Positions 19,027-64,000 of a stretch of DNA of 64,000 nucleotides are shown in pieces. Position 1 is the first letter of the stretch, and every line of letters begins with the position of its first letter. The notes under the pieces were generated by a model. The model worked only from the letters and a program-made list of their open reading frames with translations, had not been told where the DNA came from and searched no databases. Origin of the DNA: Candidatus Buchananbacteria bacterium (GTDB lineage Bacteria; Patescibacteriota; Patescibacteriia; Buchananbacterales; UBA6539). The DNA is taken from positions 11,974 to 75,973 of the forward strand of contig JBAYLH010000004.1 in NCBI GenBank assembly GCA_041664165.1, in the 5' to 3' direction. A program made the position numbers and the translations under genes.

Positions 19027-19820
19027 GTCCAAGTAAGCTAGATGATCGCCCCCCACTTTCTATGTTCTATGTGTATGTTCTAAAACTTAATAACGGCAAA
19101 TTGTATTTCGGATATACTAGCGACCTTCAGCGTAGAATTAAAGAGCATACTAACGGTGAATCAACCTTTACAGCGAGTTGCAGGCCATTAAAATTAGTAT
19201 ATTACGAAGCCTATAACTCAAAAGAGGATGCCCAAAAAAGAGAAAAAGTATTAAAACAGTTTAAGGGTAGCTATGGTCATTTGAAAAAACGCATCCAAAA
19301 AAGTATTGATAGAAAATAGAAATTAGAAAGTGGGGGGAGGAAAGTCCGAACACCACTAGCGGTAGCTCCTAACGGGAGCCGAGAGCAACAAAAGAATAGA
19401 AGCGCTTAAGACTTCTGGACTTTTGCCAAGCTTAGGGCAAGTGCAACAGAAAATATACCGCCCCCCACCTTCTGTTCAACATTAGTGATTTAAAATCACT
19501 TAAGTGAGCGAGGCGGTTCCGCCTTACTATATTCATTGATCTAAAAGATGATGACTAGAAGGTGGGGGGTAAGGTTGAAAACGTGGGCCCGCCTTCGCGC
19601 GGGATAATCCGCTTCGCCATCTTGGCTTCGGCGGAAAAAGTAAGAGCCCACGCACGACAGACTGGTGACAGTCGGTGTGGTAAACTCCTGCCTGGTGCAA
19701 TGCCAAATTTGGTCGGCAGCACGAGCCTAATGGCAACATTAGGCCAAGATAGATGATCATCTCCCCCACTTTTTTAAAAAATGGGGGAACAGAATTCGGC
19801 TTACCGGCTTGCTTGGACAA
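19027..19820 (+). ncRNA. rnpB: RNase P RNA (bacterial type) with large insertions in P3, P12 and J2/4
   Basis: P1 GUCCAAGUAAGC (19027-) pairs with GCUUGCUUGGAC (19807-19818). P2 AGAUGAUC pairs with GAUCAUCU. P4 5' strand AGGAAAGUCCG at 19338. Conserved AGUGCAACAGAAAAUAUACCGCC, GUAAGAGCCCACGCACG, GGUAAACUCCUGCC...GCCAAAUUUGG, and P4 3' strand ACAGAAUUCGGCUUA at 19790. These match the E. coli M1 RNA landmarks recalled from memory (GGAGGAAAGUCCGG, GUGCAACAGAGAGCAAACCGCC, GUAAGAGCGCACC, GGUAAACUCCACC, ACAGAACCCGGCUUA). Confidence 0.8.
19062..19319 (+). CDS. GIY-YIG nuclease-family small protein (YhbQ/UPF0213-like), encoded inside the rnpB P3 loop
   Basis: 85 aa MFYVYVLKLNNGKLYFGYTSDLQRRIKEHTNGES...; pattern YVYVL..NGKLYFGYT.DL.RR..EH matches the GIY-YIG core. 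Flanked by CCCCCCACTTTC (19049-19060) and GAAAGTGGGGGG (19326-19337). Confidence 0.65.
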   Translation: MFYVYVLKLNNGKLYFGYTSDLQRRIKEHTNGESTFTASCRPLKLVYYEAYNSKEDAQKREKVLKQFKGSYGHLKKRIQKSIDRK

Positions 19821-57882: not shown

Positions 57883-60800
57883 CTAGTGTTGGCGGATGAC
57901 GCTTTGAACCGCCAAACTGTGCGGAATTTCCGGTGGCGTGGTCTGCGCTACCGGGTCATGGCCGCAAAGCGGAACAGATTCACCATTGGCCACCAGAAAC
58001 GCCATGATATCGGTCGCATTGGCATCACTGGAAACCGTGACGATGTTGCACGCCCAACTTCCGTCGGCATTGATCGTCGTCAGCGGGGTCTGCCAGGCGG
58101 GTTTGATGCTCCAGAGAGTGGTCACCTTGATGTATACGGCGATCTTGAACATTGCCGGATCCACGCCGGTTACTACGCCCTGTAGCGAGCCGTTGACGGC
58201 ACCATAAGGCGGTACCGAGGTGAACATAATCCTCGGCGTCCGGTCGACCCAAGCCCGAGCCAAAACCTGCGAATCAGGGATTGACGGCGGGGCTTCGGTG
58301 CCGATGAGTTCCGGCGCCGTAACGTTATTGGCGATCAGAAATGCCAGAATCTCGCCGGCATACTGATCGCGCCCACCTGTAACAATGTTGCACGCCCAGG
58401 TCCTATCGGGGTTGGGAATCGTATAGCGACTCCCGCCGAAGTCCGGCTTGGTCCACCAACGCTTGACGCCGGCATCATCAGCCACGCGGATATAAACGGC
58501 AATCCGCGCCGCTGCCGGATCAATATTCCGGACGTTACCCTGGAGCGAGAAGTCCTCCACATTGCCGAACTCCGGAATGTGGCGGTTAAAGTCAATCGTC
58601 GGCAAGCCGGCTGGGTTGACCGTAACATGGACTACCTGCGAAGCGAAGTTCCCCGAGCTGTCGGTGAGCTTCACCGTGATCGTGGTATTCCCCGCCGTGG
58701 TTTTGGCCGTAACCGTCATCTTGGTTCCCACAATGGAAACCGTGATTAGGCCGCTGTCAAAACCAGTCGCTGACCAAACCGGCGCCGGGTCATAGCTGTC
58801 CGAACCAGCCAAGGTGACTTCAACGGAAGCCTCCTGGTCTAGCGTGATGTCGGCAAGCGGGTTAATAATCGGCCTAGTCGTATCGACGACATACACCGTT
58901 CTCGTCTTCGGTACGGCAACATTGCCAGAACCGTCATGAACGTTGTACGTCAATGCGTGTTGGCCGACGTGATGGATATCGACGGTGCCGGTAATAACTA
59001 TGGCTGCCGTCAAATTGCCATCATTGTCATCGGTGGCGGTTGCTCCGGGATCCGTATATTGCGCCGCGGAATTAACCTCCACAGTTTGCGGATTTTGTCC
59101 CAAAAGCGTAATCACCGGCGGCGTCGTATCCGCAGCGCGAACCACATGAACGACCCGAGTCGCTGTTGCCGTGTTGCCGGCCGCATCAGACACCGTATAG
59201 GTAATCGTGTAATTACCGACCACCGAAGTATTCACCGTGCTGACATAGGTAATGTTGGTGCTAATGTCGCCGTCATAGTTGTCGACGGCATGTGCTCCCA
59301 GGTGTGGATATGAGCCAGAACCAACCAGCACGGTATCCGGGTTATAACCCAAAATCGTAATGACCGGTGGCGTGGTGTCCGTAGCGCGAACGACGTGAAC
59401 CATGCGCGTTACCGGCATGGCTGAGTTACCGGCGGTATCGCTGACGTTGTAGGTCAGCACATAGTTGCCGATTACGGTCATGTTGACCGTACCAGCAACC
59501 ACGATCCGGCTCGTGATATTGCCATCGACATCGTCGGTGGCGGTTGCACCCGGGTCACTGAAATGGGATGCGGAGTAGACCTCGACAGTCATTTCCGCCG
59601 TTCCCAATCTGGTGATAACCGGCGGGATGATATCTCTGCCAACACCACGGTTAACCCAGACGTACGCCACGGCGCCGAAATCTTCCGGCGTCGGCAACGT
59701 TGTCTGACCGTTTAAGGTGGGCACTACGCACCAGAAAGGCACCAGGTAGGCCCAGATTTCGGTCGCGTTCTGATCGTTACCGCCTGTCGTAATGTCACAG
59801 GCCCAACGACCGTCGCTACCGATATCGCTTAGCGGGTTTCCAAACGATGGTTTAGTCCACCACCCGCCGCCGACACGCTCGACTACGGCCACTCGGAATA
59901 GCTCCTGATGGATGCTGGAAGCCACGCCTTTAAGAATACCTTCCGTATCGCCGTAAACTGGCACATACGTGAAGGCGATCAGCGGCACACGGCTAATAGC
60001 GACCGACGCAACCGCGTCATCAAGGCACGGAATATCACCGCCGCAAACCGCTTTGGTCGGCCTGATCTCGCAGGGAACAGAAGTTCCCACAGGAACCAGA
60101 TATGCGATAACTTGCGATGCCCTCTCATCGTCAGGCATCATCGTGATGTCGCACGACCAGGTCCCGTCGGTATTTACTAGTACCAAGACACCACAGTTCG
60201 GTTTCAAGTGCAGGACACCATCTACTTTTTTAATGTAAACGGCGACGCGGTAATTGCCGAGCTGAGCCGACGGAATTCCGGTAATGACTCCGTGAGCCAT
60301 ACCATTCTGGTCGCCGTAGGCCGAAACCTCAGTGAAGTTAATGCTACCGTTGGTATCGTAGTCGCCATGATCAACCGGCACTCTCACCGCGTATGCCGAG
60401 GCCAAAGTACCAGCGACGTACGGCTGCTGCCCAATTGAAGTACTAGGCAGCACTGCTGTCTTGGGAACGACTACGGCCAGATACTGATCGGCCAAATGGT
60501 CGCTACCGCCCGTGGTCACATCGGTTCCCCAGTTACCGCCGATAATCGGCGTAAAACCGGCTTGGCCGTAACCTGGCTTGATATACCAAACACCTTGGTA
60601 AGACAGGTAGACGGCGACGGCATAGTTACTGAGCTGGTCAACCGGAACGCCGGTAACCACCCCGTACAAGATGCCGTTAAGATCGCCGAATTCCGGAACA
60701 TCCGTGAATCTGATGTTCACGTTTTCGACTGTTCCGGGTTGACCAGGAATGGGATCGAGAAATACCTCCGCCGGCACAAACTGCCGCGGCGGTACCTCGT

Positions 60801-61344
60801 TGGAAATCCCAGTCACCCTGACTTTGTAGGTGCCGGGGTCGAGGTTTTCGAATACGGCAAACAGATAGGCTCCGTCGCCGTGAACAATTTCCATTGTCTG
60901 CACCCTCGCCGTCACCGAGGTAACATTGAGTTGGTGTGACATCGCGTACGCGTATGGAAGCGGAAAATACCGCCCCTGATAGTCATACACATAGTAACAT
61001 CCTTGGAACCAGTAAACGGGCTGATTTTGATAATTCATGTCCACGCGATGAAGCGTGACATTTTCCACGACCCCGAATTGGGTCGTGTATACCGCGTCCT
61101 CGGGCATCCATTGCCCGGCCGCGGAGAGGGACATCAGTTGGAACGTCACCTTCTGGACGTTGTCGTTTTTGACAAACGCCCGCGCGTCCCAGGTGCCATC
61201 AGGCCGCTGAACCGTATCCGCTTCGTAATCAAAAGCCGGAGCCGGTGTTACTTGTTGAACCGGCGGGCAGCCCGGAAGCACACCCGCGACGATAAACATC
61301 ATCGCCAGTAACACTGTCATTCTCAGTATCTTCATCTTGGTCAC
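57883..61344 (-). CDS. giant secreted repeat lipoprotein (five ~90-aa repeats + three Ig-like/DUF5011-like domains); compositionally foreign (high GC)
   Basis: 1153 aa. Lipobox VLPGC. Repeats of the form F(T)xVPxYGxxxGxLxGVxxG...AVYIxV...WxxKP...WACNIVTGG...AFLVAN; PPVIT...DPGATATDDxDGN(I/L)T modules x3. The ORF is ~58% GC against ~40% flanks. AAGGAG SD 9 nt upstream. Confidence 0.7.
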   Translation of the reverse strand: MTKMKILRMTVLLAMMFIVAGVLPGCPPVQQVTPAPAFDYEADTVQRPDGTWDARAFVKNDNVQKVTFQLMSLSAAGQWMPEDAVYTTQFGVVENVTLHRVDMNYQNQPVYWFQGCYYVYDYQGRYFPLPYAYAMSHQLNVTSVTARVQTMEIVHGDGAYLFAVFENLDPGTYKVRVTGISNEVPPRQFVPAEVFLDPIPGQPGTVENVNIRFTDVPEFGDLNGILYGVVTGVPVDQLSNYAVAVYLSYQGVWYIKPGYGQAGFTPIIGGNWGTDVTTGGSDHLADQYLAVVVPKTAVLPSTSIGQQPYVAGTLASAYAVRVPVDHGDYDTNGSINFTEVSAYGDQNGMAHGVITGIPSAQLGNYRVAVYIKKVDGVLHLKPNCGVLVLVNTDGTWSCDITMMPDDERASQVIAYLVPVGTSVPCEIRPTKAVCGGDIPCLDDAVASVAISRVPLIAFTYVPVYGDTEGILKGVASSIHQELFRVAVVERVGGGWWTKPSFGNPLSDIGSDGRWACDITTGGNDQNATEIWAYLVPFWCVVPTLNGQTTLPTPEDFGAVAYVWVNRGVGRDIIPPVITRLGTAEMTVEVYSASHFSDPGATATDDVDGNITSRIVVAGTVNMTVIGNYVLTYNVSDTAGNSAMPVTRMVHVVRATDTTPPVITILGYNPDTVLVGSGSYPHLGAHAVDNYDGDISTNITYVSTVNTSVVGNYTITYTVSDAAGNTATATRVVHVVRAADTTPPVITLLGQNPQTVEVNSAAQYTDPGATATDDNDGNLTAAIVITGTVDIHHVGQHALTYNVHDGSGNVAVPKTRTVYVVDTTRPIINPLADITLDQEASVEVTLAGSDSYDPAPVWSATGFDSGLITVSIVGTKMTVTAKTTAGNTTITVKLTDSSGNFASQVVHVTVNPAGLPTIDFNRHIPEFGNVEDFSLQGNVRNIDPAAARIAVYIRVADDAGVKRWWTKPDFGGSRYTIPNPDRTWACNIVTGGRDQYAGEILAFLIANNVTAPELIGTEAPPSIPDSQVLARAWVDRTPRIMFTSVPPYGAVNGSLQGVVTGVDPAMFKIAVYIKVTTLWSIKPAWQTPLTTINADGSWACNIVTVSSDANATDIMAFLVANGESVPLCGHDPVAQTTPPEIPHSLAVQSVIRQH

Positions 61345-61564: not shown

Positions 61565-61600
61565 TAACAAAAATTCTCTGATTTAAGAGAATTTTTGTTG
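61565..61600 (-). terminator. terminator downstream of the 61617..61955 gene
   Basis: AAAAAUUCUCU-GAUUUA-AGAGAAUUUUU, perfect 11-bp stem, U-rich 3' side on the minus strand. Confidence 0.5.
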
Positions 61601-61616
61601 ATTTGATTATTAAATT

Positions 61617-61955
61617 TTAGTCCTTGGTAATCTTACCCAAAACAAACATGATTATTGACAAAACAAGACTGAATAACAGCGCCCATAAAAACCCGGCCAC
61701 TTTAAATCCGGGCACAATCGCGCCAGTCAGCATTACCAAAGCGGCATTAATCACCAAGGTGAATAAGCCAAGCGTCAAAACATTAATCGGCAAAGTCAGG
61801 ATTACCAAAACCGGTTTCAAAATCGCGTTAAGCAAACCTAAAATCAAAGCGGCCACCAGCGCGGCGAAAATATCAGTAATCGCAATACCAGGCAATAAAT
61901 AAGCCGTGATAATAACGGCCAAAGTTGCCACTAACCATTTGAGTAAAAATTTCAT
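61617..61955 (-). CDS. small four-helix membrane protein (DUF360/holin-4-like family, tentative)
   Basis: 112 aa; four hydrophobic helices; LPGIAITD...LKPVLVILTLPINVLTLGLFTLVINA. Confidence 0.4.
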   Translation of the reverse strand: MKFLLKWLVATLAVIITAYLLPGIAITDIFAALVAALILGLLNAILKPVLVILTLPINVLTLGLFTLVINAALVMLTGAIVPGFKVAGFLWALLFSLVLSIIMFVLGKITKD

Positions 61956-61965
61956 ATATTTAAAA

Positions 61966-63213
61966 TTAATTTAAGCCGATAATTGAAGAAAAAACCAAAA
62001 CCACGGTCGCGGCGATGATGCCAAAAATTGTCGCCCAAGAGATTAGATTATCAAACCAGCTATTAACTTGTTCGCCCATAATCCTTTTATTATTAATAAT
62101 CAGCATCACGAAAATTAGAATAAACGGCAGTAAAATTCCATTGACATCCTGGGATAAAATCATAATATTGATTAAAGAAATTTTGGGAATAATGACGATT
62201 AGCGCCGGAATTAAGATGCTGGCGGCAATAATTGAATAAAAGGCCTTGGCATCTTTCCACTTCGTATTAAAACCATATTCCCAGCCAGCGGCCTCGCAAA
62301 TCGCATAAGCCGTGGCCGTCGGTAAAATAAAAGCCCCTAAAACCGAGGCGGCAAATAAGCCAAAAGCGAATAAGACCTCGGCTAAATGTCCGGCTAGCGG
62401 CTCAAGGGCAATGGCGGCATCTTTGGCGTCGGTAATTCTGATGCCATGTTGGTATAAAGTTGCCGCCGTACAAATAATAATAAAAAAACTGACAATGTCA
62501 GTGATAAAAGCGCCCAGATAAACTTCCGCTTTTTCCGCCTTGTAATGTTTAATTTCCAAACCCTTGTCGACCACGTAAGACTGAATAAAAAACTGGCCCC
62601 AAGGAGTAATCGTGGTGCCAATTAAAGCAATCATGGTGAGTAAAAACGGCGTCGTCCATTCAAGAGTCGGCTTGAACATACTCGCAAAAGCCTGGCCGAA
62701 ATCGGGTTTAATAATAAAACCGTTGATAATGTAAACAATGTAAAAGGCCGAAAAAATCAAAAAAATCTTTTGCGTCGTTTTGAAAGAACCTTTGTACAAA
62801 ATAAACCAGATGATAAAAGCGGCAATCGGCACGGCGACATATTTGGAAATTCCTAAAATTGAAAGCGAAGCGCCAATCCCGGCGAATTCGGCCGTCATTG
62901 TTCCTAAATTGGCAATTAGCATGGTAACCATGGCAAAGGCGGTCCAGCGAACGCCGAAATTTTCCCGAATGATCCCGCCCAAACCCTGGCGCGTTACCAG
63001 CCCGATTCGAATTCCCATTTCCTGAGTTACCGCCAAAGAAAAAGTGATCAGTAAAAGCACCCAAAGCATTTTGGTGCCGAAATGGGCGCCGACAATCGAA
63101 TAAGTGGTAATGCCGCCGGCATCATTATCAGCATTGGCGGAAATAATACCGGGGCCAACCACGCTAAAGAAAAATAATAATTTTATCCAGTTGCGCCGTA
63201 ACTTTTTTTTCAT
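61966..63213 (-). CDS. NRAMP/SLC11-family transporter with non-canonical metal-site residues (DPGN->DAGG; MPH->LPT)
   Basis: 415 aa, ~11 TM. GPGIISANADNDAGGITTYSIVGAHFGTKMLWV aligns to MntH [33 protein letters not shown]. TM6 GAFILPTATAY aligns to GATVMPHAIYL. Confidence 0.65.
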   Translation of the reverse strand: MKKKLRRNWIKLLFFFSVVGPGIISANADNDAGGITTYSIVGAHFGTKMLWVLLLITFSLAVTQEMGIRIGLVTRQGLGGIIRENFGVRWTAFAMVTMLIANLGTMTAEFAGIGASLSILGISKYVAVPIAAFIIWFILYKGSFKTTQKIFLIFSAFYIVYIINGFIIKPDFGQAFASMFKPTLEWTTPFLLTMIALIGTTITPWGQFFIQSYVVDKGLEIKHYKAEKAEVYLGAFITDIVSFFIIICTAATLYQHGIRITDAKDAAIALEPLAGHLAEVLFAFGLFAASVLGAFILPTATAYAICEAAGWEYGFNTKWKDAKAFYSIIAASILIPALIVIIPKISLINIMILSQDVNGILLPFILIFVMLIINNKRIMGEQVNSWFDNLISWATIFGIIAATVVLVFSSIIGLN

Positions 63214-63227
63214 AATAAAATCGAGTT

Positions 63228-64000
63228 TTAAGCCTGAGGGGCAAAAGTTCTCATCACGTCGTCAATATAGACAACGCCCAAAAGCCGCCGTTTTTTATCC
63301 AAAACCACCGCCGTAAACAAATTGTATTTAGTCATAATATCGACAATCTCGGTAAATTTTTGGTTTGGTTTTAAAATTGACGTGGCGGGAAACAGTTTTA
63401 ATAATTCTTTAAGATTTTTTTCGGGTTCGGAAATAATCAGCCGCCGCAAAGAAACGGCTCCGTAAAAATGCTGGTCAACGTCAGTAACGTAAATATACAA
63501 AATCGAACGAAACTTCGGCGAAGCTAATTTAATTTCTTCAATGGTTTGTTTTACCGTCCATTCCGGCCGAACCGTCATATAATCCAAACTCATCAAGCCG
63601 CCGGCCGTATCGTCGGGATAAGAAATCAAACTTTCGACTTCTTGCGCCACTCCCGACTGCAATTGCGACAGATAAGTTTTTACTTCTTCTTTGGATAAAG
63701 TCTTCATCAAATCGACCACCTCATCGATTGACATCTGGGATAAAATCTTAGTCACTTGCTCGGGACTTAAAAACTTCACCATGTTTTTTTGAAGGCGCGG
63801 ATCCACTTCTTCAAAAACTTTGGCGGCTCTTTTTGCATCCAAAGAAGTAACCAGCTGGCTGCCTTGTTTAATATTCAAATCCTCGATAATATTGGCCAAA
63901 TCGGCCGGATGAAGTCTGTTCAAATCTTTGGAACCAATGTCTAATTTTAAAACTCCTTTAACCGGCTGAGTTTCGCGCCAGTCGATTAAATGAACTTTAA
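63228..64000 (-). CDS. MgtE N-terminal domain + CBS-pair protein lacking the MgtE transmembrane channel domain; 5' end beyond window
   Basis: ORF is open to the window edge (…KVHLIDWRETQPVKGVLKLDIGSKDLNRLHPADLANIIEDLN…). MgtE_N-like helical region, then two CBS motifs, stop at 63228, 14 nt before the NRAMP-like gene. Confidence 0.6.
   Translation of the reverse strand, partial: KVHLIDWRETQPVKGVLKLDIGSKDLNRLHPADLANIIEDLNIKQGSQLVTSLDAKRAAKVFEEVDPRLQKNMVKFLSPEQVTKILSQMSIDEVVDLMKTLSKEEVKTYLSQLQSGVAQEVESLISYPDDTAGGLMSLDYMTVRPEWTVKQTIEEIKLASPKFRSILYIYVTDVDQHFYGAVSLRRLIISEPEKNLKELLKLFPATSILKPNQKFTEIVDIMTKYNLFTAVVLDKKRRLLGVVYIDDVMRTFAPQA

Follow-up and report, generated by a model that had tools for sequence, protein, structure and literature searches.

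A magnesium transporter-like NRAMP protein and its PRC-MgtE_N-CBS partner in Candidatus Buchananbacteria: an operon with a possible trans-acting magnesium sensor

Two neighbouring genes lie at the end of a 64,000-nucleotide stretch of DNA from Candidatus Buchananbacteria (contig JBAYLH010000004.1; the whole stretch is called the window below). One codes for a transporter of the SLC11/NRAMP group, the other for a soluble protein related to the cytosolic part of the magnesium channel MgtE, further referred to as the partner. The locus is almost certainly an operon composed of an NRAMP-related magnesium transporter (NRMT) and its conserved partner. This reading is right but not new, as the locus is a Patescibacteria example of an operon type that has already been published. 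The explanation which in our opinion fits best, and which we hold to be probable though far from assured, is that an uncoupled NRMT carrier of Mg2+ and Mn2+ is combined with a soluble, trans-acting, Mg2+-sensing partner.

The transporter matches the Pfam family Nramp (PF01566) with E 3.5e-91 over profile positions 1-357 of 357, i.e. over the full length of the SLC11/NRAMP fold. Among all PDB sequences its top match is EleNRMT, the Mg2+ transporter of Eggerthella lenta (7qia; E 1.5e-102, 347 bits), with 43% identity over 403 ungapped residues. The following scores are much lower: 74 bits for 10ky, 62 for DraNramp, 52 for ScaDMT and 38 for NRAT, with all canonical NRAMPs at or below 74 bits. The NCBIfam cut-offs for MntH (108 versus 430 bits) and Nramp (62 versus 272.5 bits) are not reached. 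Judged by these similarity scores and by the published sequence motif, the transporter is classified as an NRMT, closer to EleNRMT than to canonical NRAMPs or NRAT.

The residues predicted to line the metal site point the same way. In transmembrane helix (TM) 1, the canonical DPGN motif is changed to DAGG by replacement of asparagine with Gly34, just as the initial annotation had read it; D31 and G34 are near-invariant across the NRMT clade. The unwound segment of TM6, I198-G-T-T-I-T-P-W205, pairs with "IGTTIAPW" of EleNRMT and "IGATVMPH" of DraNramp, and the actual changes in TM6 are therefore Ala to Thr200, Met to Thr203 and His to Trp205. The initial annotation had placed the altered MPH motif elsewhere, in "LPT" at residues 297-299; this assignment has to be rejected, as these residues align with a later helix of both EleNRMT and DraNramp. 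Correction of the alignment leaves the conclusion of altered specificity the same. DAGG in TM1 together with TTIT in TM6 gives the signature DxxG/TxxT and thus the NRMT motif, published as DxxG-TxxA/T (Ramanadane et al., eLife 2022, PMC8806188). With this signature, and with 347 bits to EleNRMT against at most 74 to canonical NRAMPs, the original proposal, a relative of NRAMP with a changed specificity, possibly for Mg2+, is well supported.

Threonine at the former methionine position is common in the clade. In a set of 84 full-length sequences from the clade, made up of 82 representatives together with EleNRMT and the window protein, the site reads DGTA/W in 20, DGTS/Y in 15, DGTT/W in 12 and DGTT/Y in 9; the DGTT site is found in 21 of the 84 sequences and in 51 of the 101 NRMT loci of the survey described below. 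Mutations of EleNRMT (PDB 7QIA/7QIC/7QJI/7QJJ) have shown the importance of D55, T224 and Q379, and of G58 in the double mutant T224A/G58N. All of these are retained, D55 as D31, G58 as G34, T224 as T200 and the alpha-10 glutamine Q379 as Q355; tryptophan in place of the first TM6b histidine is also shared. The two proteins differ at Ala227 of EleNRMT, replaced by Thr203 in the published alternative form TxxT. They differ also in their source, since the Buchananbacteria transporter comes from a Patescibacteria metagenome-assembled genome (MAG) and is known from its sequence alone. Its TM6b segment, TPWGQFFIQSY, contains no histidine: both alpha-6b histidines of H+-coupled NRAMPs are gone and W205 stands in place of the first. 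With the canonical, H+-coupled Mn2+/Fe2+ transporters of the MntH/NRAMP type (DraNramp, ScaDMT, EcoDMT) the protein thus shares the SLC11 fold and the aspartate of TM1, but it scores only 52-62 bits against them and differs in DPGN to DAGG, AxxMPH to TxxTPW and the absence of both TM6b histidines.

EleNRMT transports Mg2+ and Mn2+ without coupling to protons, and its widened binding site accepts the hydrated ion (PMC8806188). By analogy, the most likely mode of transport of the Buchananbacteria NRMT is an uptake of hydrated Mg2+ (and Mn2+) that is uncoupled from protons and powered by the membrane potential. That Mg2+ is the physiological substrate is the favoured view, held with moderate confidence: Mg2+ transport has been characterised only for the NRMTs EleNRMT and CabNrmT, and the NrmT of A. 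capsulatum behaves as a Mn2+ importer.

The partner gene lies upstream of the transporter gene on the same strand, separated from it by exactly 14 nucleotides, as first annotated. Its reading frame is still open at base 63998 of the window. The complete gene, present on the parent contig (L001:295-1509), codes for 404 amino acids, and an exact-sequence look-up found the identical gene pair on two independent assemblies, a 177.8-kb ENA contig and a 9-kb JGI contig. The protein is composed of two PRC-barrel domains within approximately 170 N-terminal residues, the MgtE_N domain and a CBS pair. The PRC match (Pfam PF05239) scores 27.3 bits versus a cut-off of 21.2, the N-terminal halves each match PRC alone with 19.3 and 15.7 bits, and 41 of 43 family members match as well. 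Its C-terminal 230 residues align by phmmer with the MgtE cytosolic domain 2yvy (E 7e-31) up to residue 252 of Thermus thermophilus MgtE (TtMgtE). An AlphaFold2 model (mean predicted local distance difference test score, pLDDT, 79.8; predicted template modelling score 0.48) gives MgtE cytosolic domains as the first Foldseek matches (2yvy, E 6.7e-17). The MgtE family model TIGR00400 is matched only at positions 27-249 of 450, with 138 bits versus the cut-off of 232.75.

No hydrophobic segment is present in the partner, the maximum 19-residue Kyte-Doolittle score being 1.09. As the protein ends about four residues past the position of TtMgtE residue 252, it has neither the plug helix nor the TM domain, and it is not an MgtE channel. 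The upstream open reading frame (ORF) had been described as an MgtE N-terminal domain with a CBS pair and without TM helices: the domains and the lack of TM helices stand, and the composition was incomplete, since two PRC barrels precede them. In comparison with T. thermophilus MgtE (PDB 2YVX/2ZY9; cytosolic domain 2YVY), the partner shares the N domain and the CBS pair; it lacks the plug helix and the five-helix TM domain, carries two additional PRC barrels at its N-terminus and is a separate soluble protein beside a carrier of the LeuT fold.

The pairing is close to obligatory across distant phyla, including reduced Patescibacteria genomes. We surveyed 22 genome loci, 80 metagenome loci and two Eggerthellaceae loci, in total 101 distinct NRMT loci. 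The scan of genome contigs used a single protein as query and reached relatives from the candidate phyla radiation (CPR) of 67-90% identity; the metagenome search used a 16-sequence alignment, and partners were detected by hidden Markov models built from the partner family. The loci span 43-100% NRMT identity and comprise CPR, Eggerthellaceae, high-GC and other lineages. The partner gene is located upstream on the same strand in 95 of the 101 loci, in 92 of these within 300 nucleotides, and PRC, MgtE_N and CBS domains are all present in each of the 82 loci with a visible partner N-terminus. Recurrence in other genomes, proposed as a check of the initial annotation, is thereby confirmed, and had been described already in 2014 (PMC4072509). 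Spacers have a median of about 9 nucleotides; in 65 of 90 loci they are 30 nucleotides or shorter or the genes overlap, overlap being found in 21 of the 90. The upstream partner is absent from three loci with at least 1300 nucleotides of upstream sequence (L010, L102 and L069), and in the remaining three the upstream sequence is too short to judge. Upstream of the NRMT gene, L010 carries a gene of the FemAB family (L010:300-1289) and L102 a metal-sensing repressor of the CsoR/RcnR type (L102:3155-3523); in L069 a partner gene is located on the opposite strand, downstream of NRMT (L069:5339-7345). Four MAGs labelled "uncultured Gammaproteobacteria" (L009, L010, L012 and L019) contain NRMTs 71-77% identical to ours, with the partner in L009, L012 and L019; their taxonomic labels are probably wrong.

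For the NrmT group, operons of this kind have been described under the name "mgtE-nramp operons" (Shin et al., PLoS Genet 2014, PMC4072509): the Nramp-related gene directly follows a gene for a homologue of the MgtE cytoplasmic domain. Some of them are preceded by M-box riboswitches, and the role of the partner was left open (PMC4072509). The same two-gene arrangement is found in C. acetobutylicum (Ca_c0685), where the partner is split, in contrast to the single gene in Buchananbacteria, and in A. capsulatum (Acp2976/Acp2977). An EleNRMT ortholog from Paraeggerthella (91% identical) likewise has a PRC-MgtE_N-CBS gene upstream, 4 nucleotides away and coding for 450 amino acids. The PRC match of this Eggerthellaceae partner (L025:3644-4996) reaches 45.4 bits, and the protein possesses an extra C-terminal hydrophobic TM helix (Kyte-Doolittle score 2.59), absent from CPR partners; no other of the 95 partners has a C-terminal tail of at least 22 residues. 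The PRC barrels are not mentioned in the 2014 paper (PMC4072509), nor is the partner in the structural paper of 2022 (PMC8806188), and our literature search found no work on the partner later than 2014.

Conservation within the partner family is concentrated outside the MgtE-like part. Among 78 distinct partners, 17 residues are conserved in at least 95%, and 11 of these belong to the second PRC barrel (residues 91-155 of L001:295-1509): D95, Q97, D100, R108, V109, N110, D111, D127, R135, R136 and W155. Only D244 of the mapped Mg2+/ATP-site residues reaches the same level. The second PRC barrel, and not the MgtE-like part, is thus the best conserved element of the partner across phyla. In the AlphaFold2 model of the protein alone, pLDDT drops below 50 in loop 98-105 of this barrel, and one may speculate that this is a surface which becomes ordered only upon binding.

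The Mg2+ and ATP sites were mapped by alignment to T. thermophilus MgtE alone, with the functional residues taken from PMC5882242 and PMC5529423 and with 43 family members. The Mg4 site (TtMgtE D91 and D247, partner D240 and D395) is retained in 41-43 of the 43 members and the Mg6 site (TtMgtE D95, partner D244) in all of them. By this alignment, three of the six acidic residues forming the cytosolic sites Mg4-Mg7 of MgtE are retained in the partner. The retained sites are intra-subunit, and the lost ones, Mg5 and Mg7, are inter-subunit sites in MgtE. Two residues of the ATP site, TtMgtE Y170 and R187, are retained as Y316 and R333, and most ATP-contact residues are changed.

CorA and MgtE are both closed by cytoplasmic Mg2+. 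A Mg2+ carrier that runs uncoupled on the membrane potential requires a brake, and EleNRMT, which is uncoupled, is unstable when purified by itself. A protein that is obligatory, translationally linked, equipped with the intra-subunit Mg2+ sites and in one lineage anchored in the membrane would be the natural candidate for a sensor acting in trans. The partner would then act as a cytoplasmic Mg2+ sensor, probably attached to the transporter by its highly conserved second PRC barrel, and would restrain uptake once cytoplasmic Mg2+ suffices, as the attached N and CBS domains do in the MgtE channel. With no plug helix in the partner, contact may be made by the PRC barrels in its place. A link to Mg2+ is supported by an M-box Mg2+ riboswitch (144.7 bits, L033:2424-2593) located directly before the partner gene and an NRMT gene with the DGTT/W site on a high-GC metagenome contig, in agreement with Shin et al. 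2014. That the proteins are in physical contact, that regulation is inhibitory and that Mg2+ serves as the signal are all inferred. The gating role as such is tentative, somewhat short of an even chance, and the most specific version, a detachable Mg2+-sensing gate that binds the LeuT-fold NRMT from the cytoplasmic side by its second PRC barrel and closes uptake at high cytoplasmic Mg2+, is at best a possibility slightly weaker still.

Several observations weigh against this proposal. The one published test, in which the A. capsulatum partner and NrmT were expressed together, left the rescue of a Mg2+-transport defect unchanged, and this NrmT was mainly an importer of Mn2+ (PMC4072509). In MgtE the signal is passed on by the plug helix, and the partner has none. 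The Mg5 site (TtMgtE D226 and D250, replaced by N and R) and the Mg7 site (E59, replaced by K) are lost, and the ATP-site residues D188, N203 and F227 are changed to R, K and L. Across the partner family the replacement of F227 by leucine is invariant, D188 is replaced by R or W and N203 by K; in TtMgtE, the mutation F227A abolishes ATP binding. No M-box or other Rfam match at E<=1 is present in positions 1-3500 of L001, which contain the Buchananbacteria locus, and an M-box was found in only one of 16 related loci scanned, the above-mentioned L033. A search of the 150 top representatives gave no fusion of partner and NRMT; their longest protein has 562 amino acids.

Alternatively, the transporter could serve mainly for the import of Mn2+ (a transition metal), as the NrmT of A. 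capsulatum does, and the role of the MgtE-like partner would be unrelated to Mg2+ gating. The A. capsulatum NrmT, which also has a partner gene and, like the Buchananbacteria locus, no riboswitch, fully rescues a Mn2+ mutant and rescues a Mg2+ mutant only at millimolar Mg2+ (PMC4072509). The affinity of EleNRMT for Mn2+ (dissociation constant approximately 100 uM) is also tighter than that for Mg2+ (approximately 400 uM). Nevertheless, we regard this alternative as rather unlikely: Thr200, whose EleNRMT counterpart is required for Mg2+ transport, is retained, the soft methionine ligand, the source of transition-metal selectivity in canonical NRAMPs, is absent, and in L033 it is an NRMT with the DGTT/W signature that stands under M-box control.

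A still less probable view sees the partner as a factor for the assembly, stability or membrane targeting of NRMT, or as its positive activator, and not as a Mg2+-dependent brake. It would agree with the instability of EleNRMT alone in detergent and its difficult reconstitution, with the tight and often overlapping gene linkage, which suggests stoichiometric co-production, and with strongest conservation in the PRC barrel instead of the Mg2+ sites. Yet EleNRMT transports alone in liposomes, heterologously expressed NrmT proteins function without the partner and gain nothing from its addition, and a pure chaperone role leaves the conservation of D240, D244 and D395 at the MgtE Mg2+ sites unexplained. 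As for a decayed or mis-assembled fragment of an MgtE channel, adjacent to the transporter by accident, this idea is suggested by the window alone, in which the ORF resembles an MgtE stopping before its TM domain. It is already refuted and of negligible probability: the intact architecture recurs in 95 loci, with PRC, MgtE_N and CBS in every visible N-terminus, the identical pair is found on the two independent assemblies, and the 5' part of the gene codes for PRC barrels and not for TM helices. The same result excludes the arrangement against which the initial annotation had cautioned, namely an MgtE whose TM domain precedes the CBS pair on the 5' side.

Positions of the operon and of its adjacent features are given in Table 1. 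The gene following NRMT, which codes for a protein of the Phage_holin_4_2 family, is probably co-transcribed with it at the Buchananbacteria locus. As a conserved member of the unit it was considered and rejected, for among the 22 genome loci it is found only in L003, a 90%-identical relative. The hairpin behind it possibly marks the end of the transcription unit.

Table 1. Features of the NRMT-partner locus, in window coordinates
Feature	Position	Strand	Remarks
Partner gene, C-terminal 256 codons	63228..64000	-	First 148 codons past the window end; NCBI MFA6382042.1 "CBS domain-containing protein"
End of second PRC barrel of partner (residues 149-170)	63933..64000	-	Remaining tandem PRC region outside the window
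MgtE_N domain of partner (residues 177-278)	63609..63914	-	Pfam PF03448, E 2e-25; opposite T. thermophilus MgtE residues 25-126
CBS pair of partner (residues ~285-400)	63243..63590	-	Pfam CBS; followed by 4 residues and the protein end
14-nt spacer	63214..63227	-	Between partner stop TAA (63228-63230) and NRMT start ATG (63211-63213)
NRMT-clade SLC11/NRAMP transporter gene	61966..63213	-	415 aa; NCBI MFA6382041.1 "divalent metal cation transporter", Ca. Buchananbacteria
TM1 metal-site motif N30-D31-A32-G33-G34	63112..63126	-	Canonical DPGN; opposite EleNRMT N54-D55-A56-G57-G58
TM6 metal-site motif G199-T200-T201-I202-T203-P204-W205	62599..62619	-	Canonical GAxxMPH; opposite EleNRMT G-T224-T-I-A227-P-W229 and DraNramp GATVMPH
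L297-P298-T299, initially taken for MPH	62317..62325	-	Later helix; opposite EleNRMT "VLPLTTAF" and a later DraNramp helix
Four-TM membrane protein, Phage_holin_4_2 family	61617..61955	-	112 aa; Pfam E 8.6e-33; 10 nt after NRMT stop
Hairpin with 15-bp stem after the Phage_holin_4_2 gene	61565..61600		Consensus scan only

Other features of the window stand apart from the operon. A gene for a 1153-amino-acid Ig-like/HYR surface protein (57883-61344, minus strand) has a guanine-cytosine (GC) content of 54-58% with sharp edges in a genome of approximately 41% GC. Both assemblies of the organism contain this gene and L003 lacks it; it looks like a recent lineage-specific acquisition. All 31 ORFs of at least 300 amino acids in the 64-kb window (1-64000) are located on the minus strand, and the cumulative GC skew falls steadily. 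The bacterial class A RNase P RNA (19323-19819, plus strand, 141 bits) lies on the strand opposite to all large ORFs; as it spans 497 nucleotides compared with 367 positions of the model, it must carry sizeable insertions.

The existence of NRMTs with a "partial MgtE" neighbour has been known since 2014 and the structure of an NRMT since 2022; interest now turns to the function of the partner. To this the survey adds the near-obligatory pairing, the tandem PRC barrels, the second of them as the most conserved element, and the retention of the intra-subunit Mg2+ sites alone. It also yields concrete residues and constructs that bear on the gating of an uncoupled Mg2+ carrier by a separate sensor. 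If the proposed role of the partner is true, the MgtE channel would have lent its regulatory module, in trans, to a transporter of unrelated fold, and the structures and kinetics of EleNRMT published so far would describe only the unregulated half of the native system.

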